Below are positions 22,369 through 36,747 of a stretch of 64,000 nucleotides of DNA, in pieces; within the stretch, counting starts at the first letter, position 1, and every line of letters begins with the position of its first letter. This stretch comes from Chloroflexota bacterium (GTDB lineage Bacteria; Chloroflexota; Anaerolineae; UBA2200; JACIWT01), in the NCBI GenBank assembly GCA_014360825.1, contig JACIWT010000012.1, positions 72 to 64,071 of the forward strand, written 5' to 3'. Under the pieces are notes generated by a model that searched no databases, was not told the DNA's origin, and saw nothing but the letters and a program-made list of their open reading frames with translations. A program made the position numbers and the translations under genes.

Positions 22369-22608
22369 TACGAAACCGATTTGTGTTAATTTTAGCCCAC
22401 CCTCTATCTCGTGCCAAATGGTTCTGCCCTACCAGGACGCCAGAGCGAAGTCATTTCTTCGGGGTTCGTAGGGACTTAGATTCCTGAGAGGACGCTGCCA
22501 CCTACACGACCACGAAGTTCTATGATTTCTCATGTTACAGAAACCTTTTGCCAGATCTGGCGTCGTTATGATAAGATTGTCATAAGCGAACTGCCTTGGA
22601 GGCTAGAT

Positions 22609-25600
22609 ATGGGTAGCCAAAAGACATCTGCTGAGAGATTGCTAAACTTGCTGGTCATCGCATCTCTGGTTATTACCACAGCGGGGTTCGTGCCCCTTCG
22701 TGTCGCGGCCGGAACGCAAGTAAATCAACCCGCTGCCGATCAAACCATCTCCGCGGTGGCCTCTGCCTCCGCCAGGGCCACATCACTGTCTCCATCCATG
22801 CTGCCAAAATCTCAAGGCGATCTTGCTGTCTTCCCTAGTACACCCGCTCCAACCCCCGCACCGACATCAGAGCCCATGCTCACTCCGCCGCCGGCAGACG
22901 AGGCCTATATCACCCCTGAAGGTGGCGGAGTGTTACAATCGGCGAACGGCCGCATTCGCCTGGAGTTCCCGCCCGGTGCAGTGCGCGAGCCGGCGACCGT
23001 CCGGTACGTCGAAGTCCTGGCCCAGCCGTTCACGCTCTCTACCGACACCCTGCTGAGGTTCAACCTGGAAGTGGTGGGAGGCGCCCAACCCACCGATGCG
23101 CGAGGCCACGCCCTGTTCGATCAGCCCTTGACACTGACCATCAATCTGGAGGGACTGGTGGCGGCGCAGCCCCTGTTGGCGCAGAACAAGCGCCTGGAGT
23201 TCGCCTACGTCTCAGAACGCTACGGCGAGAGGGCCACCTTGGTGGCGGTCCCTCTGACCAGTGTGGATTGGGAACGGGGACAGGTGGTCGTCGTGTTCGA
23301 CCACTTTTCAGAGTGGGAGTTGATGGCTGCTGACCAACTCCCGCCGACCGACTGGATGTTCCCCACCAACCTGGGTGCGGCCGTGGACCCCTTCACCGGC
23401 TCGGCAGCGTACAACTACTCGATCGAAGTGGTGCCGGGCATCCAAGGCCTGCAGCCACAGTTAACCCTCTCCTACAGCAGTCGAACCGTGGACAACCTGC
23501 TGACCAACATCCAAGCCCCGTGGGTCGGTCTGGGCTGGTCGCTGGAGACCGTCGAGGTGGTGCGCAAGATCACTACCCACCGGGGCAGCCAGGGCATGGT
23601 CTACGGTTACGAAAACACATTCACGTTGATCTTCCAGGGGCGCTCGCAGCGCCTGGTGCGCGAGCCAGGCAGCCCGCCGGCAGGCAAACCGGCGGTATAC
23701 CATGCTGAGAGCGAGGATTTCTTGCGCATCGAGCGTTACAACGCCCAGCACGGTGGCCAAAGCCCATCCAACACCTGTGGCGAGTATTGGGTGATCACGG
23801 CCCGCGATGGGACGGTGTACCGCCTGGGCTATAATGCCGACTCCGAGCAGGTGGCCAGCATGCAAGACTACAACCCCAACAACCCACCGGCGGCAGGGTA
23901 TGCCGGGTCGGCCACCAACCGGGTGGCATATCGCTGGCGGCTGGATCGGGTGACGGACACCCACGCTAACTACATGACCATCTCCTACTCTGAGGAGCAG
24001 AAACAAGATCCGGTGGTCACCGGCAACCCCACCTACGACCACGCCAGTTATCTGAATGAGATACTGTACACGGGACACAACCCCGGCTTCTCACCGCCTC
24101 ACAAGGTGCAGTTCGAGCGCGAGGGTCGCACCTTCGACACGAATACACCCGTCTCCTGGCTGGGTTATGAAGGTTCTCCGAACAGTAAACCCTACGCCTT
24201 GTTTGAATCCCAGCGTCTGAAGCGTATCAAGATCTACAAAGACACCACCCTGGTGCGCAAGTACGAACTCGGCTATACCTACATCGAGCATGGCAACCGC
24301 AAGAACACCTTGTTGCAAACCATCACCCAATATGGGTTGAGCGGGTTGTCTCTGCCGACAGTGACTCTGACTTACCAGGGCTATGAGAACCGGAACCCTG
24401 GCGGCGAAGGCGACTGGTTCGTTTACGACCGGCTGATTACGGTTACCAACGGCTATGGCGGGAGTGTCGGGTTCAGTTACGCCTACTTCGGGCATTGCGA
24501 GTTCGGCTGTGGACGCTACTACCGCGTCTCGGAGATGCGCACCCTGAATGGCCAGGGTAACACGGCCAAGGTGCAATACACCTACCAGACCCCAACGTGG
24601 AACAACTTTGCCCCAGACGATTATGACACTTTCTGGGGCCATGACGTGGCGACGGAAACCGTCTTGGCCTATAACCTGACCACGCTTTCCCAAACTATCT
24701 ACGACTTCAACGTGGCTACCATCGAACGGAGGGGGCGCCCCGAGAGCGTCAAGGTAAAAGACAGTAGCGGGGCAGTGAGGCAGACGACAACCTACACTTA
24801 CTACCAGGAGTACACCGTATCACCGCAATCTGACCAGTACTGGCGTTTCGCCGCTTTCGTAGCCCCCAGCGAAGTGGTAGTCTATCCGAACGATGGGTCC
24901 TCGGTGTACAAGAAGACCAAGCACTACTATGAAGCCAGTTCGCAAGGTGGGAAACAGTACGGCAATCTGACCCAACTGGAAGAGTACAGCGGCACCGTCG
25001 CAGTGCGTAAGACGTGGTGGCGCTTTTACCCCGATGCAGATTACTGGATCATCAACAAGCCTGGCTTCACCAACGTCTACACCTGGACGGGCAGCACCTG
25101 GCTGTGGGAGTCCTCGACACAGTATTGCTACGACGATAGTTGGTACTATGCCAACCCCATTGGCTCCACCAACTACGGCGGCAACGGCAGTCACAAGGGC
25201 GAGTTGACCCTGGTGCGCCGCAACACCGGCGAGACCTATTCGCAGGGCGGCCGCACCTATTACAAGATGGTGGACACCGTCTATGATTACGACGTCTATG
25301 GCAACCAGATCAATATCATAGAGTACAACTCCTACGGCAGCCTCTCCGATGGCACACCCCCGCTGGGTGCGGTGGCCAGCCAGAACCCCCGCCCCATTAC
25401 CATCACCTATGAGAGCACCTACCACACTTACCCCAGTCAGGTGACCAATGCCAAAGGCCACACGGCCACTTATATCCATAACGCTGGTTTTGGCACCCTG
25501 ACACATGTAACCGACCCGAACAACGACGAGGTAGACTATGAGTACGACGAATTCGGCCGGCTGAAGAAGGTATGGCGCCCCGGCGACGACAAAGACCTGG

Positions 25601-28377
25601 GCCATGCCGCCACCTCCGAGTACACCTACACCGACAGTTACCCCTTCCGCGTCTATGTGAAACAGCGCGATGACCTGGGTGGGGGCGGTACGGCCACTTA
25701 TTATGAGACCTGGTCCTTCTACAACGGCCTGGGGCAGTTGATCCAGACCCAGAAAGAGGCGGTGGGCGGGATCATTGTGGCCGACACGGCCTACGACTCC
25801 CGTGGGCTGACGGAGAAGATCGGCCTGCCCCGCGCCAGCACCGGGGGCGGCAGTTACAAGACGCCCAATTGGACCGGCGCCACCACCAACCAATACGATT
25901 GCCTGGGCCGGCTTACTCTGGTAACCTATCCCGATGGCCGCACCGTCTCACGCAGTTACACCAACTGGACCACAGCGGTCATTGATGAAAACAGCCACAA
26001 GAAAGAGTTCGAGAACGATGCCCTGGGCCGGCTGATCCGTGTGCGCGAGTATACCGGCACCAACCCGTACACCCTATACGCCACCACCATTTACGCCTAC
26101 AACAGCCTGGATCAGTTGATCCATCTCTGGGATAACGCCAGTAACCACACCGGGATCACCTATAACAAACTGGGGCAAAAGACAGCCATGGGCGACCCCG
26201 ACATGGGCAACTGGGCCTATGCTTACGACCCCATCGGCACGCTGGCCAGCCAGAGCGACGCCAAGGGCCAGACCATCGCCTTCTTCTACGACGAACTGAA
26301 TCGCCTCCTGCGCAAGGAATACCCCGCGGGCACAGTCCTGGCCAGCTTCACTTACGATGACACGACGGGAGGTAACAAGGGCAGGGGCCGGCGGACGGGG
26401 ATGAGTTATAGCGGAGGCGGCTCGGCCTCCTATATCTATGACGGCCGGGGTCGCCTGACCAAAGAGACCGACGTCATCCCGGGCCCGGGAGGCGGCACTT
26501 TCGTCACCCAGTGGACCTACAACGATATGGATCGGGTGCGGACAACGGTGTATCCAGGTGGAAACGGCGGGCAGACTGGAGAGACGGTAACTTTCACCTA
26601 CGGAGCCGATAGTTGGCTGAAGAGCGCGGTTGGCACCAACACTTACGTGGGCGACACCACCTACAACGCGCTGGGGCAAGTGGAACTGAGAAAACTGGGT
26701 AGCGCCGCCACCCCTGTGCTGACCACCGACTACATCTATCGCACAGACAATTTCCGTTTGCAATGGATCAAGACCGGCCAGAGCAGCCCCTTCGAGGGGT
26801 TGCAGAAACTGGAGTACACCTACGATGCGGCGGGGAACGTCCTGACCATCAAAGACTACAACGCCGGCGGCACCCAGACCCAGAGTTTCGTTTACGACGC
26901 GCTGGACCGGGTGACCACGGCTACCGCGAGCGGGGGGACGGGGGGCCTCTACAGCGAGGGGTACACCTACAACCCCATCGGCAACCTGCTGAGCAAAGGC
27001 GGGGTGAACTACACCTATGGCTCCAGCAAGCCCCATGCGGTGACCGCGGCTGGTTCTAACTCCTACGCCTACGACGCCAACGGCAACACGATCACGCGCA
27101 CAGTGGGCAGCGACACCTACGCCCTGACGTACGACGCAGAGAACCGCCTGACGCAGGTGAAGAAGAACGGGGGCGCCATCGCCGCCTTCGTCTACGACGG
27201 CGACGGGGTGCGGGTGAAGGCCATGGTCAACGGCACGACCACCGCCTACATTGGGGACTACTACGAGCAGACGGGGAGCACCATCCGCAAATACTACTAC
27301 GCCAATGGCCAGCGGGTGGCCATGCAGGAGAACAGCACCCTCTACTGGCTCTTGACGGACCACCTGGGCTCCACCGCCATCACCGCCAACTCGAGCGGCA
27401 GCAAGTACGGCGAGTTGCGCTACAGGGCCTATGGCGAGACCCGCTACACCTGGGGCACCACGCCCACCACCTATCGCTTTACCGGCCAGCGGGAAGAGAG
27501 TACAATAGGGCTGTACTTTTACAATGCCAGATGGTATGACCCGGCCTTGGGGCGATTTGTGCAGGCGGATACCCTCGTGCCGGAGCCGGGGAACCCGCAG
27601 GCGCTCAACCGCTACTCGTACGTGCTGAACAATCCGCTGCGGTATACGGATCCCACTGGTCTCTTCTCAGAGGAAGAGATTATGAAGCACCTAGAGGTGG
27701 ATACCTGGGAGGAAGTGCTGGCCTTCTTCAGAGCCGGAGGATTGCTGGCGGGAAGGTGGGGTTGGCTCGCAGTTCTGCGCCAAGCGCAGTTGGGAGATGA
27801 GGTCCAGTTCCTGGAGGGCTATGCTGGCTTCTGGCCTGCGCCGGGACCTGGGGGAAGGGTTGCCTCGCGCGGCATTTTCGTGGAATCGAATGGTTCGCTC
27901 TACATCCGGGGCGCTGAAGGCGGCCTGATAGCGGCAAATGAGGCAGCGAAGGTGGGTAATGCCTATCTGCTGGCCAGGCCGTCGTCGGACTATAGGTTGC
28001 CGATGGTGTTCGGGCCGTACTATGCTGAAAGAATGTACCCGCATCATTACCAACTTGACCCGGGAAGGGTGGATTGGGTTGGGGCTGGTCTTGATGCTGG
28101 AGGAATTGCTGCCGACGCGCTCACCTATGGAGCAGGGGGCAGGCTTGTTAATGTAGCCGAAATCGCTGTAGCTGGCAGACAGATTGGAGATGCTCTCGAT
28201 GTAGTGAGCTTGGTGAGGAGTGGATACCCGTTTGCGAGGGGGACTCTGAGGGGAGGGCTCTCTTACGCTCAAGTCAGAGACTTCTCTCTGGATACAGCCG
28301 CACTTTGGATTCCGTTTGTGCCTGATTTCGTGAGTCTGGTGGCGAATTTCCGTGAGGCTTCCTATCCAGTGCCTTAG
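22609..28377 (+). CDS. Rhs/YD-repeat polymorphic toxin with C-terminal toxin domain CT1
   Basis: About 1920 aa. Signal/TM N-terminus, dozens of YD repeats and the Rhs core ending at PxxxxDPxGL (NPLRYTDPTGL, D at 27649). A unique ~238-aa C-terminal domain follows. Start set at the ATG with a GGAGG RBS (track ORF begins at 22522). Confidence 0.9.
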   Translation: MGSQKTSAERLLNLLVIASLVITTAGFVPLRVAAGTQVNQPAADQTISAVASASARATSLSPSMLPKSQGDLAVFPSTPAPTPAPTSEPMLTPPPADEAYITPEGGGVLQSANGRIRLEFPPGAVREPATVRYVEVLAQPFTLSTDTLLRFNLEVVGGAQPTDARGHALFDQPLTLTINLEGLVAAQPLLAQNKRLEFAYVSERYGERATLVAVPLTSVDWERGQVVVVFDHFSEWELMAADQLPPTDWMFPTNLGAAVDPFTGSAAYNYSIEVVPGIQGLQPQLTLSYSSRTVDNLLTNIQAPWVGLGWSLETVEVVRKITTHRGSQGMVYGYENTFTLIFQGRSQRLVREPGSPPAGKPAVYHAESEDFLRIERYNAQHGGQSPSNTCGEYWVITARDGTVYRLGYNADSEQVASMQDYNPNNPPAAGYAGSATNRVAYRWRLDRVTDTHANYMTISYSEEQKQDPVVTGNPTYDHASYLNEILYTGHNPGFSPPHKVQFEREGRTFDTNTPVSWLGYEGSPNSKPYALFESQRLKRIKIYKDTTLVRKYELGYTYIEHGNRKNTLLQTITQYGLSGLSLPTVTLTYQGYENRNPGGEGDWFVYDRLITVTNGYGGSVGFSYAYFGHCEFGCGRYYRVSEMRTLNGQGNTAKVQYTYQTPTWNNFAPDDYDTFWGHDVATETVLAYNLTTLSQTIYDFNVATIERRGRPESVKVKDSSGAVRQTTTYTYYQEYTVSPQSDQYWRFAAFVAPSEVVVYPNDGSSVYKKTKHYYEASSQGGKQYGNLTQLEEYSGTVAVRKTWWRFYPDADYWIINKPGFTNVYTWTGSTWLWESSTQYCYDDSWYYANPIGSTNYGGNGSHKGELTLVRRNTGETYSQGGRTYYKMVDTVYDYDVYGNQINIIEYNSYGSLSDGTPPLGAVASQNPRPITITYESTYHTYPSQVTNAKGHTATYIHNAGFGTLTHVTDPNNDEVDYEYDEFGRLKKVWRPGDDKDLGHAATSEYTYTDSYPFRVYVKQRDDLGGGGTATYYETWSFYNGLGQLIQTQKEAVGGIIVADTAYDSRGLTEKIGLPRASTGGGSYKTPNWTGATTNQYDCLGRLTLVTYPDGRTVSRSYTNWTTAVIDENSHKKEFENDALGRLIRVREYTGTNPYTLYATTIYAYNSLDQLIHLWDNASNHTGITYNKLGQKTAMGDPDMGNWAYAYDPIGTLASQSDAKGQTIAFFYDELNRLLRKEYPAGTVLASFTYDDTTGGNKGRGRRTGMSYSGGGSASYIYDGRGRLTKETDVIPGPGGGTFVTQWTYNDMDRVRTTVYPGGNGGQTGETVTFTYGADSWLKSAVGTNTYVGDTTYNALGQVELRKLGSAATPVLTTDYIYRTDNFRLQWIKTGQSSPFEGLQKLEYTYDAAGNVLTIKDYNAGGTQTQSFVYDALDRVTTATASGGTGGLYSEGYTYNPIGNLLSKGGVNYTYGSSKPHAVTAAGSNSYAYDANGNTITRTVGSDTYALTYDAENRLTQVKKNGGAIAAFVYDGDGVRVKAMVNGTTTAYIGDYYEQTGSTIRKYYYANGQRVAMQENSTLYWLLTDHLGSTAITANSSGSKYGELRYRAYGETRYTWGTTPTTYRFTGQREESTIGLYFYNARWYDPALGRFVQADTLVPEPGNPQALNRYSYVLNNPLRYTDPTGLFSEEEIMKHLEVDTWEEVLAFFRAGGLLAGRWGWLAVLRQAQLGDEVQFLEGYAGFWPAPGPGGRVASRGIFVESNGSLYIRGAEGGLIAANEAAKVGNAYLLARPSSDYRLPMVFGPYYAERMYPHHYQLDPGRVDWVGAGLDAGGIAADALTYGAGGRLVNVAEIAVAGRQIGDALDVVSLVRSGYPFARGTLRGGLSYAQVRDFSLDTAALWIPFVPDFVSLVANFREASYPVP

Positions 28378-28794: not shown

Positions 28795-28912
28795 GACGGC
28801 CACCTTCGTCTACGACGGCGACGGGGTGCGGGTTAAGGCCATGGTCAACGGCGTGACCACCGCCTACGTTGGGGACTACTACGAGCAGACGGGGAGCACC
28901 ATCCGCATGTAA
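28795..28912 (+). pseudogene. 5' remnant of orphan rhs C-terminal cassette 2, ended by an in-frame TAA
   Basis: Encodes ATFVYDGDGVRVKAMVNGVTTAYVGDYYEQTGSTIR, near-identical to the main Rhs core. It ends where a palindromic insertion brings in a stop codon. Confidence 0.65.
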
Positions 28913-28932
28913 GGGCGTACGGCCGTACGCCC
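28913..28932. repeat. 20-bp perfect palindrome GGGCGTACGGCCGTACGCCC inserted in orphan cassette 2
   Basis: Intact copies read ...ATCCGCAAATACTACTACGCC... at this point. Here the sequence is ...ATCCGCATGTAAGGGCGTACGGCCGTACGCCCCTACGCC..., a net +18 nt in-frame that carries a TAA. Confidence 0.8.
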
Positions 28933-28951
28933 CTACGCCAATGGCCAGCGG

Positions 28952-29971
28952 GTGGCCATGCAGCAGAACAGCACCCTGTACTGGCTGCTGACCGACCACC
29001 TGGGCTCCACCGCCATCACTGCTAACTCGAGCGGTAGCAAGTCCGGCGAACTGCGCTACAGGGCCTATGGGGAGACCCGCTACACCTGGGGCACCACGCC
29101 CACCACCTTCCGTTTCACCGGCCAGCGGGAAGAGAATACAATTGGGCTGTACTTTTACAATGCCAGATGGTACGACCCGGCGCTGGGGCGGTTCGTGCAG
29201 GCGGACAGCATCGTGCCTGAGCCAGGGAACCCGCAGAGCCTGAACCGGTATTCGTACGTGCTCAACAACCCGCTGCGGTATGTGGACCCGAGTGGGCACT
29301 ATACCTTTGAAGAAGATCCAGATGACCCCTGGATCTACCGAGAATGGGATCCACGCGTCCGCTCTCGGTACTGGTACACCCACCCCGCAGTGCAGTTAAG
29401 GACTGTGAGCGATGCTGAAGTCCTTGCCGCAATAACATCCCCCCTCTGGGGGGCCGCCGGGGCGGTGCTTGTGGACGCGGCGCTGACGGAGGTGGCTCTA
29501 CCTGCGGCGAAGACGGTCGCGGGCCAGGCAGTGGCCCGCCTTGCACCGTTGGCACAACAGGTGTGGGAGAGAGGCAAAGAGGCTATTCGTCTGGCACGAC
29601 CAGATGGAGTACGATGGGGACCACATACGGGCGCCGGCCCTCTTGGTGAGGAGATCGCCAAACTGTTCCGTGGGGGCAGCTACACTGAACTCAAGCTTAA
29701 TGTAGAAACAACGCTGTACCGCGTCTGGGGTGGGAGTTCTCCAGAATTAGGTCCCTGGTGGAGCCGAACCCCTCCGGCAGGTCCTCTCCAGGCAAAGATT
29801 GACCTGGCTTTGCCGTCCGGCAACACCGCGCTGAATGTAGTAAAAATCCAAGTGCCCGCAGGAACAACGATCTATGAAGGGTTTGCGGAGCGGCTTGGAG
29901 GACTCTTGGGCGGTGGAAACCAAGTATTCATTCCGTGGGTTGATCCTAGTTGGGTGGTGAGAACATGGTAG
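28952..29971 (+). CDS. Orphan rhs C-terminal cassette 2 (core end + toxin domain CT2), possibly restart-translated
   Basis: Same frame as the 28795-28912 remnant. Encodes the Rhs core end through DPSG, then a unique ~230-aa C-terminal domain. The nearest ATG after the stop is 28952. Confidence 0.65.
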   Translation: MAMQQNSTLYWLLTDHLGSTAITANSSGSKSGELRYRAYGETRYTWGTTPTTFRFTGQREENTIGLYFYNARWYDPALGRFVQADSIVPEPGNPQSLNRYSYVLNNPLRYVDPSGHYTFEEDPDDPWIYREWDPRVRSRYWYTHPAVQLRTVSDAEVLAAITSPLWGAAGAVLVDAALTEVALPAAKTVAGQAVARLAPLAQQVWERGKEAIRLARPDGVRWGPHTGAGPLGEEIAKLFRGGSYTELKLNVETTLYRVWGGSSPELGPWWSRTPPAGPLQAKIDLALPSGNTALNVVKIQVPAGTTIYEGFAERLGGLLGGGNQVFIPWVDPSWVVRTW

Positions 29972-30343: not shown

Positions 30344-30562
30344 TTGGCCCCGGACGATATCCTTTCAGTTCGACTGGACAAAATCTTCCACCAGCAAGAG
30401 GTCACCGCCCGGCTGTTCCACGAACTACCTACTTATCCATCCCGGGCATTCTCGCCTCAAGTAATCTGGAACGCCTACACCCGGGTGTATGGCAGACAAC
30501 TGGGTCGCTGGGACTGGCTGGAGGCCATTTGGCCCTATTTTGAAAGATGGGGGGTGCGATGA
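30344..30562 (+). CDS. Hypothetical small protein
   Basis: 72-aa ORF just upstream of and overlapping the 305-aa Cys protein. Weak evidence. Confidence 0.25.
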   Translation: MAPDDILSVRLDKIFHQQEVTARLFHELPTYPSRAFSPQVIWNAYTRVYGRQLGRWDWLEAIWPYFERWGVR

Positions 30563-31464
30563 AACGCATCACCCACATCGGGATCTGGTGGGACCCTCGT
30601 AAGCCCCCTGAGGAATTGGAGAAAGACAAAACACGCATTGCAGAGATCCTTAGGCGGATGGGGATGGGATCTCTGTTTCATCCAGAGCAGCATTTCTATG
30701 ATTTTCACCTGGAGGCAGGGTCGAAGGCTCTGGAGACTTTGGTGGAGGAACTTCAGACAACGCCTCATTTAGCAGACTCACATATTTGGGTTGAGACTCG
30801 CTATACTCGCCAAGAACTGGAATCTGCCGCCATGCTTATCTGGGGGCCAACCAATCAGGCTATTGAAGATGACTACTACGATTTTTCTGCCGAGGGCGAG
30901 GAGCACAGAGATTTGTACAAATACTGTCCGGCTTGCGGGGCACCGATCGGACAAATCCGTGATTTCATCGCCCACAAGGCCCTGATGCGAGGGAAAGAGG
31001 TCTCGTTGACCTACTCGAATCAAGTGATTCTGTCCGAACGGGTAGGGCACCTCCTGCAAGAACATAGCTTGACTGGTTTCGAACTGCGGCCGGTGCGCCA
31101 CTACAAGAAGCCCTACAAGGGAGAACCCACCCTATATCAGCTTAAGGTCACAAACATGCTGCCCCCGATGGCCTCGCCCCCCACCGAGTTTGAGCGAATT
31201 CAGCACTGTGAGGTTTGCGGTACCACGACCCGGTATCTCAAGCACACGCACTTTTGGGGGAAGATTCAATACTACGAGGATACAGACATTTATTATCCCA
31301 AGGGCGTGCTGGAGGTAGTCAAGGACTTTAACTACACCGCCGAGAAGTTCGAAGAGCTACGGGTTGCACATCCATATGTGATCATTACCCAACGAGTGTA
31401 TCGCCTGTTGCATGAGCACAAGGTGAAGAACTGGGCAGCGGTGCCGGTGTATCTGGTGGATTAG
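30559..31464 (+). CDS. Hypothetical protein with two CxxC motifs, embedded in the rhs array
   Basis: About 300-aa ORF. CPACG and CEVCG motifs lie ~75 aa apart. No recognisable catalytic motif. Confidence 0.55.
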   Translation: MKRITHIGIWWDPRKPPEELEKDKTRIAEILRRMGMGSLFHPEQHFYDFHLEAGSKALETLVEELQTTPHLADSHIWVETRYTRQELESAAMLIWGPTNQAIEDDYYDFSAEGEEHRDLYKYCPACGAPIGQIRDFIAHKALMRGKEVSLTYSNQVILSERVGHLLQEHSLTGFELRPVRHYKKPYKGEPTLYQLKVTNMLPPMASPPTEFERIQHCEVCGTTTRYLKHTHFWGKIQYYEDTDIYYPKGVLEVVKDFNYTAEKFEELRVAHPYVIITQRVYRLLHEHKVKNWAAVPVYLVD

Positions 31465-31576: not shown

Positions 31577-32856
31577 GCGTAGCCGAAGCCTACGACGCCA
31601 ATGGCAACACAATCACGCGCACGGTGGGCAGCGACACCTACGTCTCCTCGTACGACGTCGAGAACCGCCTGACGCAAGTGAAGAAGAACGGGGCCGTCAT
31701 CGCCACCTTCGTCTACGACGGCGACGGGGTGCGGGTGAAGGCCATGGTCAACGGCACGACCACCGCCTACGTCGGGGACTACTACGAGCAGACGGGGAGC
31801 ACCATCCGCAAATACTACTACGCCAATGGCCAGCGGGTGGCCATGCAGCAGAACAGCACCCTGTACTGGCTGCTGACCGACCACCTGGGCTCCACCGCCA
31901 TCACTGCTAACTCGAGCGGTAGCAAGTCCGGCGAACTGCGCTACAGGGCCTATGGGGAGACCCGCTACACCTGGGGCACCACGCCCACCACCTTCCGTTT
32001 CACCGGCCAGCGGGAAGAGAATACAATAGGGCTGTACTTTTACCATGCCCGATGGTATGACCCGGCCTTGGGGCGATTTGTGCAGGCGGATACCATTGTG
32101 CCGGAGCCGGGGAACCCGCAGAGCCTGAACCGGTACTCGTACGTGCTCAACAACCCGGTGCGGTATACCGACCCGAGTGGGCACTGGGTGCCTGTGGATG
32201 AGGACGAATACGGAAGACCAACAAGAAGGCCTTATGTGCCGCCAGTAGTTATATATATCCACAGGGAAATGGTGACCAATGTGCAGGGTAGGATTATGAA
32301 GTTGCTCCAGTCTTTGAACCAGGCGTGCTACAGTTGTGCCTGGGACGATGTGCCTGACTGGATGCCTGGGGTCGGAGAGGGGCGAAGGAACGCAGCTATT
32401 GCTGATACAGCCGCAAAGACAGAAGCATTTGCGATCTTCGGCTGGATGGTACGCCAGGAAGGTCCTTGGGACCCCAAGCCCCACATTGGTCGGGATTACG
32501 GCACCTCCCAACGAATTGGGGACGCCTGGTACTACTACGATATCTGGGGGAACATGATGTTTGGCTACCTGGGAACGGCAGCCGGTTTCTCCGAATCCGA
32601 ACTGCTGGAGGGCGCAGGCCTGGAGCAGATCGGCTCCAGTATGGGATACGCCATACGCGAGCGGAAATCCAGTTACCTGCCAAGGCGAGAGCCAGGAGTT
32701 AGTGGACTGCGTGCCTGGGATGATCCTGTTGATCAAGTCACAACCCAGATTGGTATCAACTTGTGGAATGCCTACAGTCTCAACGTCACCCCGATGGACA
32801 TCATCCAGGCAATTAAGGCAGAACCGAGAATCCCCACGAAAGATGAGCCGTGGTGA
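31577..32856 (+). CDS. Orphan rhs C-terminal cassette 3 (core end + toxin domain CT3)
   Basis: Homology to the main Rhs core begins around 31577 (YDANGNTITRTVGSDTY...) and runs through DPSG. A unique ~225-aa CT follows, containing GPWDPKP and AGFSESELLEGAGLEQ. First in-frame ATG is at 31624. Confidence 0.7.
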
Positions 32857-32890: not shown

Positions 32891-33490
32891 ATGAAAAAGC
32901 GTACCCTTGGCTGCGTTGGTTTGCTATTCGCTTGCGTGGCTCTGATGTTCTTCTACATCGTGATATATGGCAGGCCAAAGACGAGAGCACAGCCGGTGAA
33001 TATGTACGATCTTATGGTAGACGTGTCAGCCTTTCCCCAGGGATGGGATGTGGAGTTTGGACCCTCTCACCCTCCGCCAAGGAAACACCTCAGAGGGGAG
33101 AGTGAGGGCTTGTATGTGCAGTTTGCGAGGGGCTTTGACCATGGCGCAATGCACATAGTTTGCAGATATACAAACGATCTAACAGCAACGGTTTCCTTTT
33201 ACGTGGACAATGAGTTCCCCAATCTGAGAGAGGCTATGATAACCCCGTGGGCAGTGCCTGAAGGATGGTCATACGAGAGTCCGGTTGCTGACCGCTTCAA
33301 GTTCGCCTGTGCTGAGCTTGAAATATTAGGGCGATTCCGGAGTTGCTCAGCGGTCGCTCAATATGGTGAGTACATCTCTGTCTTCAGAAGCAAAGTATCT
33401 CCTGAGTACATGACGCTACAAGACTTGGAACGCATTCTCAAGGCCATTGACGAGCGCATGGCTCAGCACCTGAAAGGCAATAGCCGGTAA
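32891..33490 (+). CDS. Secreted/lipoprotein-like immunity-family protein (paralog 1)
   Basis: 199 aa. GGAGGT RBS, N-terminal signal or anchor (LGCVGLLFACVALMFFYIVI) and the conserved C-terminus YESPVADRFKFACAEL...MTLQDLERILKAIDERMAQHL shared with 34769-35374 and 35721-36350. Confidence 0.65.
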   Translation: MKKRTLGCVGLLFACVALMFFYIVIYGRPKTRAQPVNMYDLMVDVSAFPQGWDVEFGPSHPPPRKHLRGESEGLYVQFARGFDHGAMHIVCRYTNDLTATVSFYVDNEFPNLREAMITPWAVPEGWSYESPVADRFKFACAELEILGRFRSCSAVAQYGEYISVFRSKVSPEYMTLQDLERILKAIDERMAQHLKGNSR

Positions 33491-33525
33491 GCATGAACTT
33501 ATCAAGCAAGGGCAAGGAGTGTCCT

Positions 33526-33924
33526 ATGCGGAGGAAGCTTCTCTTGATCGGCTGGATCATCGGCATTCTATTCCCCTTTGGGTGGCTCACCTCGTATTCT
33601 GACACCTATCGCCAAGTGTTCGATATGATCTTCAGTCCTCTGTGGGTTCACATCCTGATGCACACTCTGCTCTACCTGGTGTTGGCCTATCTCCTGACCT
33701 GCTTACTGTTGAGGGGCCGTTCTGCACAGATGAGCCTATACCACCTCGGCCTGTTGCTTTTAGTGATTTTCATCATCGCCCTGCTGCAAGAAGGTTTTCA
33801 ACTGCTCTACCAAGGGAGGCTGCCGGGTGCCGATGAGTGGCTGGACATGGGTGTTGATTTGGTCGGGGGTTCATTGGGGCTTCTGATGTTTTGTGTACGA
33901 GTGAGAAGGATATCTCAGCGGTAG
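33526..33924 (+). CDS. Small polytopic membrane protein (VanZ-like topology)
   Basis: About 132 aa with four hydrophobic helices. AAGGAG RBS 6 nt upstream of the ATG. Confidence 0.45.
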   Translation: MRRKLLLIGWIIGILFPFGWLTSYSDTYRQVFDMIFSPLWVHILMHTLLYLVLAYLLTCLLLRGRSAQMSLYHLGLLLLVIFIIALLQEGFQLLYQGRLPGADEWLDMGVDLVGGSLGLLMFCVRVRRISQR

Positions 33925-34094: not shown

Positions 34095-34763
34095 GTGACC
34101 ACAGCGGTGCTGTGGGTGACCAAGTACTACTACGCCAACGGCCGGCGGGTGGCCATGCGCACGCCCTCCGGCGTCAGCTACATCCATGCTGACCACCCTT
34201 CGGCTTCGCTCAGGGCAGGCCTGGGGAGCACGGCAGTCATCAGCGGGGCGCAGAGTGGCAACATCAGGTACTACCCGTACGGGACCACACGCAGCGGCGC
34301 TGTGGCCACCGCCTACAAGTTCACCGGGCAACGGTTGGATGACAGCACAGGGCTGTACTTCTATGGAGCCCGCTACTACGACGCGGCCCTGGGGCGGTTC
34401 ATCCAGGCAGATACCATCGTGCCGCAGCCGGGGAACCCCCAGGCGCTGAACCGGTACTCGTATGTGCTGAATAATCCGCTGCGGTATGTGGACCCTACTG
34501 GTCGTCGGTATGAGCAGAGCGCCGGGTACGTATTCGATCCCAATTACTGGCGGGACCTCCTACTCTGGTTCGTTCGCGAGGCCAACCGCAATGCCCGGCT
34601 CCCGGAAGTGCAAATCATGCGTCTCAACAATGTAGTGGGCAACTTAGGCCCACCTGGTGCTGGCAGCAAAGCTCTGGCTGGCGGTATGTTCTATCAGTTG
34701 GTCCGGGACAGCGGCCCATGGGATTTCAAGGACGAGACTGAAGATAAAAGGAAAGGAGGCTGA
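34095..34763 (+). CDS. Orphan rhs C-terminal cassette 4 (divergent core end + short CT)
   Basis: Homology starts at KYYYANGRRVAM and continues to DPTG. The CT is short and contains GPWDFKD, related to the CT3 N-part. Confidence 0.6.
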   Translation: MTTAVLWVTKYYYANGRRVAMRTPSGVSYIHADHPSASLRAGLGSTAVISGAQSGNIRYYPYGTTRSGAVATAYKFTGQRLDDSTGLYFYGARYYDAALGRFIQADTIVPQPGNPQALNRYSYVLNNPLRYVDPTGRRYEQSAGYVFDPNYWRDLLLWFVREANRNARLPEVQIMRLNNVVGNLGPPGAGSKALAGGMFYQLVRDSGPWDFKDETEDKRKGG

Positions 34764-34768
34764 AGAAG

Positions 34769-35374
34769 ATGCAAAGAGCCTTGCTGATAGGGACATTAGT
34801 AATGCTGTGCGCATTCGCAGGGGGGTGTGATGTTTTTACTACCCCTCCGCCCCGAGATTGCGCAATAAGCAGTCTAGTTATAGATGAAACAGTTTTCCCC
34901 CCTGGCACAGTGGCTGATCTCCTGGTATCGCCCTTGCCAGGAGGACCGATCCCCAAAACGGCTTTTGAATCCGCTGGGCGTAGCTTCCACTACTCACGCA
35001 CCTTTGGGATCACTACACACAACGTTTATCGCTACAAATCAGCAAATAGGGCAGCCGACGAGTTCGCGCGACGTAGAAAACTTGAATTTTCGGAGGGAGA
35101 GAACAGAGGACCTTGGAAGAAGCCAAGTGATCTTACTTATGAAAGCCCCATCGCTGACCAATTCTGTGTGGCTTGTGGCATGGATGGTAGCTTTTACACT
35201 TGCGTGATGGTTGCCCAATATGAAGAGTATTTCGTGCGGCTAAATGTCCACATGTCTCCTGACACCATGACCTTCCAGGATCTGGAGCGCGTGCTCTGGG
35301 CTGTTGACGAGCGCATGGCCTACTGCCTGAACAAGCCGCTGCCAACGGCACCAGCCGGAACCGCCACGCCATAG
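34769..35374 (+). CDS. Secreted immunity-family protein (paralog 2)
   Basis: 201 aa with an N-terminal signal peptide. C-terminus YESPIADQFCVACG...MTFQDLERVLWAVDERMAYCL ends in LPTAPAGTATP. Confidence 0.65.
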   Translation: MQRALLIGTLVMLCAFAGGCDVFTTPPPRDCAISSLVIDETVFPPGTVADLLVSPLPGGPIPKTAFESAGRSFHYSRTFGITTHNVYRYKSANRAADEFARRRKLEFSEGENRGPWKKPSDLTYESPIADQFCVACGMDGSFYTCVMVAQYEEYFVRLNVHMSPDTMTFQDLERVLWAVDERMAYCLNKPLPTAPAGTATP

Positions 35375-35395
35375 CCATAAGGCCAGGTTTGCGCG
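35335..35395 (+). repeat. Direct repeat copy 1 (3' end of immunity paralog through the CAGGAGAAC junction)
   Basis: About 60 nt near-identical to 36311-36371: CTGCCAACGGCACCAGCYGGAACCGCCACGCCATAGCCATAAGGCCAGGYTTGCGYGCAGGAGAAC. Confidence 0.75.
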
Positions 35396-35724
35396 CAGGA
35401 GAACATCGCTCCTTTGACACGTGGTCGAACATCCACTATGGTTATGTTGGCATAGCAGCGGGCTTCTCGGCTGATGCTCTGCTTGATGGCGCAGGGCTGG
35501 AACAGTTCGGCTCGGATATTCTCGCTTACCGAAAATGGCCTCAGGCTGTTCCGGGAGTCAGCGGGGTGCGACGATTTGATCAGCTATATGATCAGGCAGC
35601 GATCCAGGTCGGCGTTGATCTGTGGAAGACCTATAGCCTGGCAGTAAAACCGGAGGATATCGTCTGGGCGATACAAACTGTGCCTGGTCTCGATAGACGG
35701 CCGGCACAAGGAGGGCATCTATGA
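35389..35724 (+). CDS. Orphan toxin fragment homologous to the C-terminal half of CT3
   Basis: SFDTWSNIHYGYVGIAAGFSADALLDGAGLEQFG aligns with CT3 YDIWGNMMFGYLGTAAGFSESELLEGAGLEQIG. It begins right at a CAGGAGAAC recombination junction. Confidence 0.55.
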   Translation: MRAGEHRSFDTWSNIHYGYVGIAAGFSADALLDGAGLEQFGSDILAYRKWPQAVPGVSGVRRFDQLYDQAAIQVGVDLWKTYSLAVKPEDIVWAIQTVPGLDRRPAQGGHL

Positions 35725-36350
35725 AGAAGATAACTTTGGGCTGCTTGGTTTTGCTGCTTTTGGTCTGTGGGCTGCCGGTAACCCTTTGGGCCCTGCCTTC
35801 ACTACTGCCACCTACCGTAAGAACACCCCCAGTGGATATGCGTGACTTGATGGTAGATGCGACTCCCTTTCCCCCAGACTGGCGTGTGGTGCGCGGGCCA
35901 GAGCCACAACCCGAAAGATCGAGTTTGGATTGGGGAGATGAGAATCTATCTGTGGGCTTACAGCCCACTGGTGATAGAGGTTTTGCGTCTCACTACGTTT
36001 TCAAGTTCCGCAACGAAGCTGCGGCTATGTACGGTCACTTTTGGATTCTAAGACAGGGGGTATTGTTTCCTTCCCACCGGGAATCGAAGATCCCCGCTGA
36101 ATGGACCTACCGCAGTCCGATTGCCGATGATTGGCGCTTTGCCTGTGTAGATTATGGGCAAGGCAAGCGAATGTGGTGTGCTGCTATGGCACGGTATGAT
36201 GAGTATATCTCCGTACTTAATACCACCGTGTCCTCTGAGTATATGACCCTAAAAGACCTGGAGGGTATTTTGAGGGCCATTGATGAACGCATGGCTCAAT
36301 GCCTGGGCAAGCTGCTGCCAACGGCACCAGCTGGAACCGCCACGCCATAG
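35721..36350 (+). CDS. Secreted immunity-family protein (paralog 3)
   Basis: 209 aa with signal peptide MKKITLGCLVLLLLVCGLPV. C-terminus YRSPIADDWRFACVDYG...MTLKDLEGILRAIDERMAQCL also ends in LPTAPAGTATP. Confidence 0.65.
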   Translation: MKKITLGCLVLLLLVCGLPVTLWALPSLLPPTVRTPPVDMRDLMVDATPFPPDWRVVRGPEPQPERSSLDWGDENLSVGLQPTGDRGFASHYVFKFRNEAAAMYGHFWILRQGVLFPSHRESKIPAEWTYRSPIADDWRFACVDYGQGKRMWCAAMARYDEYISVLNTTVSSEYMTLKDLEGILRAIDERMAQCLGKLLPTAPAGTATP

Positions 36351-36371
36351 CCATAAGGCCAGGCTTGCGTG
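36311..36371 (+). repeat. Direct repeat copy 2
   Basis: See copy 1. Followed by a truncated rhs core fragment. Confidence 0.75.
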
Positions 36372-36593
36372 CAGGAGAACACCACGCCCACTACATATCG
36401 CTTTACCGGCCAGCGGGAAGAGAATACAATTGGGCTGTACTTTTACAATGCCAGATGGTATGACCCGGCCTTGGGGCGATTTGTGCAGGCGGATACGATT
36501 GTGCCTGAGCCGGGCAACCCGCAGGCGCTGAACCGATGTATATGTTTTGAATATCACTGCACAGGACCCCTAACTATATCCCGAGTGCCTTAA
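36369..36593 (+). pseudogene. Truncated rhs core fragment (TTPTTYRFTGQREENTIGLYFYNARWYDPALGRFVQADTIVPEPGNPQALNR-), the island's terminal remnant
   Basis: Homology ends before the DPxGL motif. Reading then runs into unrelated sequence (CICFEYHCTGPLTISRVP). Confidence 0.65.
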
Positions 36594-36747
36594 CCCTCGC
36601 TAACGCCCATACCGCTTATCGCACTCCTGATGGCGTCTCCACTTCATTGTGTTCTCTCAATATGCAATGCCTCTGGTCTTCTCCTTGCGGGGAAGACCAC
36701 GTTGGTGCTATACTCTAAGTGATATCGAGAACGGGAGAGCATTTTAT

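Follow-up and report, generated by a model that had tools for sequence, protein, structure and literature searches.

The window, the whole 64,000-nt stretch of DNA analyzed here, comes from a Chloroflexota metagenome-assembled genome (MAG) and carries a main rhs gene followed by five leftover modules (Table 1). The main gene is full length and encodes, in order, an N-terminal hydrophobic segment, an SpvB domain, RHS/YD repeats, an Rhs-associated core (Rhs_assc_core) ending in the motif PxxxxDPxG (PLRYTDPTG, ~27634-27660), and the C-terminal domain CT1. Downstream of it are fragments in which a partial core, differing in length from one to the next, is followed by a distinct C-terminal domain and then by a small gene. 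The genes on either side of the array encode PHP, PSP1, DNA polymerase III delta', a 2-hydroxyacid dehydrogenase, CinA, L20, and IF3. No recombinase gene was found among these flanking genes, and there was no recombinase match among those array ORFs that were searched with Pfam.

Table 1. Coordinates and content of the array features in the window
Feature	Coordinates	Strand	Description
Main rhs gene	22522..28377	+	1951 aa; RHS_repeat 5.6e-21, SpvB 1.2e-08, TIGR03696 3.4e-22
Orphan 2	28799..29971	+	Core-end fragment from FVYDGDG (main ~27178; 87% to main), then CT2
Orphan 3	31583..32856	+	Core-end from (A)YDANGN (main ~27062; 92% to main), then CT3 with Ntox44 (PF15607, 3.2e-18)
imm3	32891..33490	+	Putative lipoprotein-like immunity protein, 199 aa (P0002); native short end ...MAQHLKGNSR-stop
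Orphan 4	34116..34763	+	Core-end of a different Rhs clade from (T)KYYYANG; CT4-family linker; first ~20 Ntox44 positions
imm4	34769..35374	+	Intact immunity paralogue, 201 aa, 83% identical to P0012; lipobox-like FAGGC
Junction block copy 1 (J1)	35332..35412	+	imm tail LPTAPAGTATP-stop (to 35374); putative 30-nt degenerate ANGQ..QEN core remnant (35375-35404); probably an 8-nt TTP segment
Orphan 5	35410..35724	+	5'-truncated toxin, Ntox44 profile 41-102 (E 2e-14); without core-end and without start
imm5	35721..36350	+	Intact immunity paralogue, 209 aa (P0001); 86% identical to P0003 of L002
Junction block copy 2 (J2)	36308..36388	+	Composition as in J1; runs in frame into TTPTTYRF
Orphan 6	36380..36537	+	Terminal core fragment TTPTTYRF...ALNR; TIGR03696 positions 11-55

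The core-derived fragments start at main-equivalent positions ~27062, ~27178, ~27288, and ~27302/27456, and those of orphans 2, 3, and 6 are 87-94% identical to the main gene. Orphan 6, with a core fragment of 157 nt, matches main 27456-27611 at 93.6% over positions 36380-36535 and is cut between NR and YSY, beyond which lie non-rhs DNA and then the 2-hydroxyacid dehydrogenase gene. In orphan 4, homology to the Rhs core begins at 34116-34121; a 38-nt island (34121-34158) alone is 92% identical to the main gene and the remainder is 77% identical. The core-end of orphan 2 is interrupted at 28909-28936 by a 28-nt palindrome that makes a TAA stop, the sequence reading GTAAGGGCGTACGG followed by CCGTACGCCCCTAC where the main gene has AATACTAC of KYYY. 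The arm of this palindrome has no further copy within the window, and the orphan 2 ORF has no record in the public contig index. A previous sequence-only reading had placed the start of cassette 4 and the palindrome of cassette 2 at KYYYANG, and both placements were correct. Its broader claim, that modules begin or end at just two points of the core-end, did not survive, since orphans 2 and 3 start elsewhere and the boundaries of partial core-ends outside the window are dispersed (see below).

The Ntox44 domain was detected in CT3, in the orphan 5 fragment (1.9e-14; a homologue of the C-terminal half of CT3), and in a concatenate of CT4-N and CT5-C; CT1 and CT2 had no Pfam match. In the concatenate, the Ntox44 score increased from 54.3 to 61.1 bits and profile coverage extended to positions 2-102. 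We considered and rejected the idea that CT4-N and CT5-C are a single toxin split by imm4: each falls in an Ntox44 family of its own, for which full-length relatives exist in L003-L006 and in L002, respectively, and profile positions ~20-40 are absent from both. Compared with the full-length CT4-family relatives in L003-L006, orphan 4 has lost ~450 nt (~150 codons) from its C-terminal part, a deletion that maps to window position 34737 and to position 1018 of L006, and its toxin is dead. Toxin 5, also dead, has lost its core-end and N-terminal part: homology to the full-length toxin of L002 starts at 35405-35413, and the toxin frame differs from the QEN (AQEN) frame of J1. The immunity role of the imm genes is putative and is based on conserved synteny, an imm homologue being the next gene downstream of the Ntox44 toxin in L002-L006 and L017. 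In net terms, this end of the array today is, in our judgment, likely to serve as a reserve of orphan immunity genes that have been retained, and not as one of toxins that could be used again.

The sequence-only reading also described a 60-nt direct repeat. At the nucleotide level, the repeat is real and longer, with 70 of 74 positions identical (94.6%) between 35332-35405 and 36308-36381 and a longest exact run of 31 nt (35357-35387 and 36333-36363). The breakpoints common to both copies, whose dissolution in a nucleotide alignment was to refute that reading, held when the alignment was made, and the copies do switch into different downstream sequences, copy 1 into the CT3-like, 5'-truncated Ntox44 toxin and copy 2 into the core fragment of orphan 6. 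The switch follows GCAGGAGAAC, which occurs exactly three times in the window (at 27324, as the AMQEN codons of the main gene, at 35395, and at 36371), against a chance expectation of 0.13. The 74-nt block sits inside a weaker match of 139 nt (82%) that corresponds to the 3' ends of the two paralogous immunity genes. The remaining DNA of imm4 and imm5 is only ~40-65% identical; identity rises sharply at ~35330 and falls at 35405.

We consider it probable that this repeat is a cassette-junction unit of 74-81 nt, composed of the 11 last imm codons with their stop, a 30-nt remnant of ANGQRVAMQEN, an in-frame gap of 41 codons, and TTPTTY. The Pro/Thr/Ala tail is native to the imm4 family, homologues of which end in KPLPTATESKR, KPFPTAPVGVATHEPQD, and KALPTTPFGTATPAAW. 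Furthermore, the imm tail of L004 is colinear with the junction block (J) in DNA, and close relatives of the imm5 family end in LGKQAR and a stop instead. In L005 and L006, the imm tail is Rhs core translated in a different frame; for J this origin was rejected, as the tail is colinear with the native tails of L003 and L004. The 30 nt after the stop would derive from ANGQRVAMQEN, as they align best to main 27302-27333 (p 0.006 for J2 and 0.07 for J1 versus shuffles), in a short alignment part of which also resembles the native downstream sequence of L004. Past GAGAAC, J1 reads ATCGCTCC, J2 reads ACCACGCC, and L002 reads GTCACGCC, a comparison that suggests that the copy 1 break probably lies about 8 nt beyond GAGAAC.

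L002, which comes from an independent sample, contains a full-length Ntox44 toxin, an imm5-like gene, J (72/75), and then VTPTTFRFTGQ. Since the immunity-block-core unit also occurs after a full-length toxin in L002, J1 and J2 are, on this comparison, one junction common by descent and not two independent events at GCAGGAGAAC. The sole new event at the GCAGGAGAAC copies is the joint of copy 1 to the toxin, and even this is probably ~8 nt further on. The three copies of J (J1, J2, and that of L002) are about equally distant from each other (94.6-96%), and consequently the order of events cannot be recovered from them. The block is absent after imm3 and after every other immunity homologue examined. 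A blastn-short search against all fetched loci placed J only in the window and L002, besides L001, a unitig contained without mismatch in the window, and exact-pattern scans of genome and JGI metagenome contig collections returned zero further copies. J is not a recombination site.

Taken as a whole, positions 34095-36600 are best explained as the decayed far end, and the oldest, of a bacterial Rhs (YD-repeat) polymorphic-toxin/immunity array, an explanation in which we have fair confidence. In this explanation, the repeat combines the end that two related immunity genes have in common with a short piece of Rhs core, and was probably copied by ordinary recombination rather than by two-site shuffling. 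An imm4-type cassette would have been joined to a core fragment, which created the junction; imm5 would then have gained the imm4-type tail and the junction through recombination in the conserved DERMA..LGK region, an arrangement also found in L002. Cassette 5 would subsequently have ended up between two junction copies, either by homology-driven insertion of a circular cassette or by unequal crossing-over within the junction/core repeat, both of which correspond to a Jackson-type circular-intermediate, Campbell-like mechanism. J copies do flank cassette 5, as homology-driven cassette insertion predicts. Finally, from an intermediate with the order imm4-J-TTPTTY...DPxG-HWVPVDEDEYGRP...toxin 5, a deletion of roughly 0.5 kb starting ~0-8 nt past GAGAAC in copy 1 may have taken the core fragment along with the 5' portion of toxin 5. 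Later deletions of this kind would have killed toxins 4 and 5 and spared both immunity genes. Two counter-points are recorded here. The left end of the copy 1 deletion is 0-8 nt from the older joint of QEN to TTPTTY, a coincidence of a few per cent for a random endpoint. The core of orphan 4 comes from the other clade, which a simple same-clade homologous model does not predict.

Recent gene conversion on its own, in which imm4 and imm5 were already neighbors and a short tract copied the tail and the downstream 30-40 nt with neither insertion nor duplication of a cassette, seems to us unlikely. It would account for the sharp identity step at either end of the 74-nt tract in a family whose tails are otherwise variable, and the conserved DERMA..LGK region would provide the left-hand homology. 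However, copy 1 has no homology on the right side, where a toxin fragment faces a core, so that a conventional two-ended conversion would have no right anchor. Moreover, the J copies have diverged by ~5%, a distance that either copy also shows to L002 and that a recent event would not leave, and L002 shows that the imm5-J-core unit pre-existed as a block.

Site-biased recombination, in which the conserved core-end island flanked by the KYYYANG and AMQEN codons is a preferred breakage or crossover site where cassettes are repeatedly cut and joined, is in our view doubtful. In its favor, GCAGGAGAAC is present three times where 0.13 is expected, and the start of orphan 4, the palindrome of orphan 2, and the joint between imm tail and core inside J lie together within main 27286-27312; counted as three events within ~25 nt of KYYYANG, this has a post hoc p of ~0.05. 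In addition, the 38-nt KYYYANGxRVAM island is the sole stretch with >90% identity between the two Rhs clades. The candidate hot spot of the core-end would be the KYYYANGQRVAMQEN island. Against it, orphans 2 and 3 begin at other points, the J1/J2 junction is common by descent, and no recombinase lies near the array. For the local hairpin ATGGCCA..TGGCCAT, z was -1.0 (not significant), and no significant structure was obtained when this core hairpin and the orphan 2 palindrome were folded as DNA.

We evaluated the same proposal on a census that drew 134 independent partial core-ends from genomes and metagenomes other than this one, whose boundaries were defined with an HMM and compared with a leave-one-out truncation null. 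The starts of tblastn HSPs were unreliable as boundaries, since divergent full-length genes also "start" at conserved blocks. The left boundaries were dispersed from about -145 to +68 codons relative to K (n=134). At KYYYANG, 11 boundaries were observed versus 6.2 expected in the pooled data (p 0.048), with no excess in genomes (3 versus 3.5) and 8 versus 2.7 in metagenomes; after QEN, 9 were observed versus 4.2 expected (p 0.026). These pooled excesses make some site bias possible, but they are only ~2-fold, inconsistently replicated, and no stronger than several other unreplicated peaks (-31, -60, and +54) on a background that is itself non-uniform. A strong peak between YD and GDG (-31..-29), with 8 boundaries versus 1.05 expected in genomes, was not replicated in metagenomes (1 versus 0.8). 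In several cases, the core-end beginning at K is fused to a long non-Rhs ORF on its N-terminal side, a pattern that points to a domain boundary and not to a hot spot. We regard as rather unlikely the general proposition that cassette-to-core junctions form preferentially at a few core-end codons, including just before KYYY and just after QEN, be it through a breakage- or recombination-prone sequence or through an autonomous KYYY...DPxG module that also fuses to non-Rhs N-terminal regions. If it were true, the architecture of such arrays would be partly predictable across phyla. The census with its truncation null is a reusable test of boundary bias in Rhs orphans, to which the answer so far is weak. 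As to the sequence-only reading, its modular toxin/immunity array built by recombination stands and agrees with the established Rhs picture (PMC2935791, PMC3967940), whereas its site-biased recombination at two fixed codons is not supported in view of the starts of orphans 2 and 3, L002, the census, and the absence of a significant fold, an Rfam match, and a nearby recombinase.

It is very improbable that the tandem layout is an assembly artifact, present in no single genome and produced by a contig passing twice through a repeat common to different strains. The source is indeed a MAG, and unitigs built with k=31 end precisely within the 31-nt exact repeat. Nevertheless, that repeat is shorter than ordinary reads, and the J copies differ at 4 of 74 positions. 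Two independent Logan unitigs, L088 (34443-35386) and L001 (35358-36362), match the window exactly over their full length and are shared by two other samples, and in them the copy-specific SNPs are tied to their own flanks; L002 confirms the imm5-J-core arrangement in another sample. Equally far-fetched is a functional element (terminator, small RNA, attC-like or regulatory site) conserved by selection above the neighboring coding sequence, as the block, although better conserved than the immunity genes next to it and found again in a second sample, has a folding energy like that of shuffles as RNA on both strands (z -0.9 to +0.2), no Rfam match, and no terminator-like site, and is missing from all other immunity homologues examined and from the exact-pattern scans.

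The outcome is mainly a clarification, in which a seemingly special 60-nt repeat and "two fixed breakpoints" come down to the ends of paralogous genes, a single inherited junction, and a small number of deletions. The locus also provides a nucleotide-level example of a cassette junction copied along with its cassette.

A short repeat at the 3' end of successive cassettes with variable downstream content is reminiscent of integron attC and shufflon-type systems. In contrast to those systems, the array has neither an integrase or recombinase gene in its vicinity nor a structure of imperfect inverted repeats, and the repeat follows only 2 of 5 cassettes and is made of a coding tail and a core remnant. 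A structured or inverted-repeat site was not found at every cassette boundary: the block is at two boundaries only, folds like shuffles, and has no Rfam match. Other parallels are the immunity-gene arrays that arise through effector displacement in the Vibrio cholerae T6SS (Kirchberger 2017, PMC5361080) and the tandem EsaG/TsaI immunity paralogues of the T7SS, which recombine (Garrett 2022, PMC9484751). As in these systems, old immunity genes are kept while toxins are lost or truncated, and tandem paralogues swap segments by homologous recombination, imm5 carrying an imm4-type tail with a crossover in the conserved DERMA..LGK region. The scaffold differs, being Rhs and not a T6SS auxiliary cluster or a T7SS LXG protein, and the segment that recombined takes in a short piece of Rhs core.

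The kind of locus is already known: it is an Rhs C-terminal displacement array, here in a Chloroflexota MAG. Circular intermediates and core fragments of variable length have been described at Rhs loci (Jackson 2009, PMC2935791), as have orphan rhs-CT/rhsI modules and the recombination of an orphan with the main gene (Koskiniemi 2014, PMC3967940). Like these arrays, the present one has a full-length rhs gene followed by fragments with a variable partial core, a distinct toxin, and an immunity gene; the core fragments of orphans 2, 3, and 6 are near-identical to the main gene, and core and junction direct repeats flank a cassette, as the homology-driven circular-intermediate model predicts. Unlike them, it resides in a Chloroflexota MAG and not in an enterobacterium, orphan 4 carries a core-end of another clade, orphan 5 is without any core, and the distal modules are dead toxins with intact immunity genes. 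Chloroflexota are thus among the bacteria in which Rhs C-terminal displacement arrays operate, keeping orphan immunity genes while their toxins decay.

The Rhs locus is flanked on both sides by housekeeping genes, encoding a PHP-domain protein, PSP1 and DNA polymerase III delta' upstream and 2-hydroxyacid dehydrogenase, CinA, L20 and IF3 downstream; no recombinase gene was found among the flanking genes examined. The parent contig measures 64,334 bp and belongs to a MAG named "Chloroflexi bacterium" at NCBI. Five leftover modules (orphans 2 to 6) lie 3' of the main gene. The putative immunity genes imm3 (H5T64_09220), imm4 and imm5 (H5T64_09245) each lie 3' of one Ntox44-type toxin, and their proteins are 38-45% identical to one another. 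Additional genes are present inside cassettes 2 and 3 (30547-31464 and 33493-33924); they are a 305-aa ORF that has two CxxC pairs and lacks a Pfam match, and a gene for a 143-aa membrane protein that resembles VanZ weakly (E 6e-4, under the Pfam cut-off).

Features of the Rhs locus (CT, C-terminal toxin region)
Feature	Position	Description
main rhs gene	22522-28377	1951 aa; SpvB and RHS-repeat domains; Rhs_assc_core ending PLRYTDPTG
orphan 2	28799-29971	starts FVYDGDG; 87% identity with main core-end
orphan 3	31583-32856	starts YDANGN; 92% identity with main core-end; CT3 with Ntox44
imm3	32891-33490	lipoprotein-like paralogue
orphan 4	start 34116-34121	at (T)KYYYANG
imm4	34769-35374	lipoprotein-like paralogue
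orphan 5	35410-35724	toxin fragment without any core
imm5	35721-36350	lipoprotein-like paralogue
orphan 6	36380-36537	157-nt core fragment, 93.6% identity; ALNR end abuts non-rhs DNA

The sequence-only reading had described a 60-nt direct repeat whose two copies switch into different downstream sequence. The repeat exists and extends somewhat beyond 60 nt, since 35332-35405 (in copy J1) and 36308-36381 (in copy J2) are identical at 70 of 74 positions, with an exact shared core of 31 nt. The switch was confirmed: J1 is followed by an Ntox44 fragment (profile 41-102, E 2e-14) in a frame that differs from that of QEN, and J2 by core sequence, TTPTTYRF, in frame. The repeated block lies at the end of a more extended, lower-identity match between imm4 and imm5, whose DNA is otherwise only ~40-65% identical, so that identity rises sharply at ~35330 and collapses past 35405. 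Only three copies of GCAGGAGAAC occur in 64 kb (main-gene AMQEN and both J blocks), versus 0.13 expected. Right after GAGAAC, the sequence is ATCGCTCC in J1, ACCACGCC in J2 and GTCACGCC in L002, a related sequence from another sample. J1 thus probably keeps ~8 nt of the TTP segment, which would place the break at ~35412 and not exactly at GAGAAC. Directly 3' of J1 and 5' of the toxin fragment and imm5, a promoter-like TTGACA-17-TATGGT (10/12) was noted at 35414-35442; across the region, such sites are about as frequent as expected by chance. Two independent unitigs built at k=31 from SRR11866725, L088 (34443-35386) and L001 (35358-36362), are exact substrings of the window, each with copy-specific SNPs and each terminating within the 31-nt exact repeat; misassembly appears unlikely.

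A profile search with the three imm paralogues yielded 95 homologues. Among their C-termini, the imm4 subfamily has a native Pro/Thr/Ala-rich tail after CLGKPLP (for example KPLPTATESKR, KPFPTAPVGVATHEPQD and KALPTTPFGTATPAAW), whereas close imm5 relatives end in LGKQAR-stop instead. The J tail is colinear at the DNA level with that of a relative, L004, as far as ~GCCA.AAG. The best full-length alignment of the 30 nt 3' of the J stop codon is with 27302-27333 of the main gene (ANGQRVAMQEN; p 0.006 for J2 and 0.07 for J1 against shuffles); beyond them come a 41-codon gap and then TTPTTY, in frame. Together, the native tail, the ANGQRVAMQEN-like 30 nt and the in-frame TTPTTY identify the J block as a cassette junction, in which an immunity-gene tail is joined to the following core fragment, whose start is degenerate. 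The alternative that the block is a functional element is weak, because it showed no significant fold, Rfam match or terminator, and no further copies in the collections scanned. In L005 (8597-8625) and L006 (1630-1658), an imm4-like gene takes its final 8 codons and stop (TATESKR-stop) from the core start of the next orphan (DGHRVKKIGG...), read in another frame, so the immunity ORF runs into Rhs core DNA.

L002 (Logan ERR14790953) contains a full-length orphan-5-type toxin, an imm5-like gene (86% aa), the J block (72/75) and then VTPTTFRFTGQ, showing that the imm5-block-core unit occurs elsewhere, joined to an intact toxin. Window homology to the L002 toxin starts only at 35405-35413, and toxin 5 is therefore 5'-truncated. 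L003 to L006 carry full-length orphan-4-type toxins (C-terminal toxin region ~255 aa) followed by imm4-family genes; toxin 4 matches them to 34737, and homology resumes in the final codons of the L006 toxin, which amounts to a deletion of ~450 nt at a short microhomology. As P0012, the closest imm4 relative (83%), differs from it in both tail and downstream DNA, imm4 or imm5 must have gained tail and junction by recombination, with the crossover probably located in the conserved DERMA..LGK stretch. The J1, J2 and L002 copies are roughly equidistant pairwise (94.6-96%). Gene conversion alone as the source of the J1/J2 likeness is a less likely reading, lacking right-hand homology in copy 1. Most likely, the junction would have arisen a single time, recombination between paralogues would have carried it to imm5, and homology-driven insertion or unequal crossing-over would have placed cassette 5 between two junction copies; deletions would then have cost toxin 4 its C-half and toxin 5 its N-part together with the core fragment.

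It had also been proposed that orphan modules start or end at just two core-end codon sites, KYYYANG and AMQEN. These shared breakpoints persist on nucleotide alignment but are not the only ones, because orphans 2 and 3 begin elsewhere. For a wider census, we used loci with related core-ends, 80 from species-representative genomes (L008-L087) and 80 from JGI metagenomes (L089-L168). Starts of tblastn matches were unreliable as boundaries, since divergent full-length genes likewise "start" at conserved blocks, so we trained an HMM on 45 full-length core-ends, numbered along the main gene with the K of KYYYANG as 0. Calibration on 9,944 leave-one-out chimeras, with truncations placed at each codon in turn, gave a median error of -1 codon (IQR -3 to 0). 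The final census comprised 134 unique junctions, the window left out.

Junctions observed versus expected at core-end sites (codons from K)
Site	Genome set	Metagenome set	Pooled
KYYYANG (-3..+7)	3 vs 3.5	8 vs 2.7	11 vs 6.2, p 0.048
after QEN (+12..+17)	5 vs 2.4	4 vs 1.8	9 vs 4.2, p 0.026
-31..-29 (YD/GDG)	8 vs 1.05	1 vs 0.8	9 vs 1.85, p 0.0001
-61..-57	4 vs 3.3	10 vs 2.5	14 vs 5.9, p 0.002

Left boundaries were spread from ~-145 to +68 codons, over a non-uniform background with few long fragments. The peaks at -31..-29 and -61..-57 exceeded both proposed sites, each in one set only (genome and metagenome, respectively) and unreplicated. Within the window, 3 of 5 events fell within 27 nt (p ~0.05, post hoc). 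With boundaries dispersed, orphans 2 and 3 starting elsewhere and larger peaks at other sites, two fixed codon positions are unsupported; the counts are compatible with a mild preference for the KYYYANG and QEN sites. Several of the boundaries at K, in L119 (~1894), L145 (~629), L081 (~1516) and L073 (~3493), belong to long ORFs with a non-Rhs N-terminal region fused at KYYY (81-501 codons upstream), which points to a module boundary at K, not a hot spot, and suggests reuse of KYYY...DPxG as a module. L119 and L145 have a common upstream ...LSLRTD..VSFD motif.

The orphan 4 start and the orphan 2 palindrome do lie at the KYYY codons. In orphan 2, a 28-nt near-perfect palindrome (28909-28936; GTAAGGGCGTACGG/CCGTACGCCCCTAC), the sole copy in the window, stands in place of 8 nt (AATACTAC) of KYYY and adds a TAA stop; it could stem from a template switch, snap-back or a mobile-element footprint. 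The orphan 4 core-end (34116-34503) is of an Rhs clade other than the main gene's (77% identity, 92% only in a 38-nt KYYYANGxRVAM island) and resembles the orphan type of L005, L006 and L007, with a 24-nt in-frame insertion (PSASLRAG, ~34196-34219) relative to the homologous L007 orphan.

Overall, the features singled out by the sequence-only reading are real, and no special mechanism is necessary to account for them. A cassette lying between two junction copies is what Jackson et al. predict with their circular-intermediate model (PMC2935791), and experiments in Salmonella showed that an orphan and the main gene recombine across a few hundred bp (PMC3967940). The orphan 4 core, from another clade, does not follow the "same clade" rule in Jackson et al. 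2009 (PMC2935791). Both imm4 and imm5 are intact despite the toxin losses, like orphan immunity genes retained in other toxin systems (PMC5361080; PMC9484751). The Rhs locus is thus of an ordinary, well-documented kind, in a less-studied phylum.
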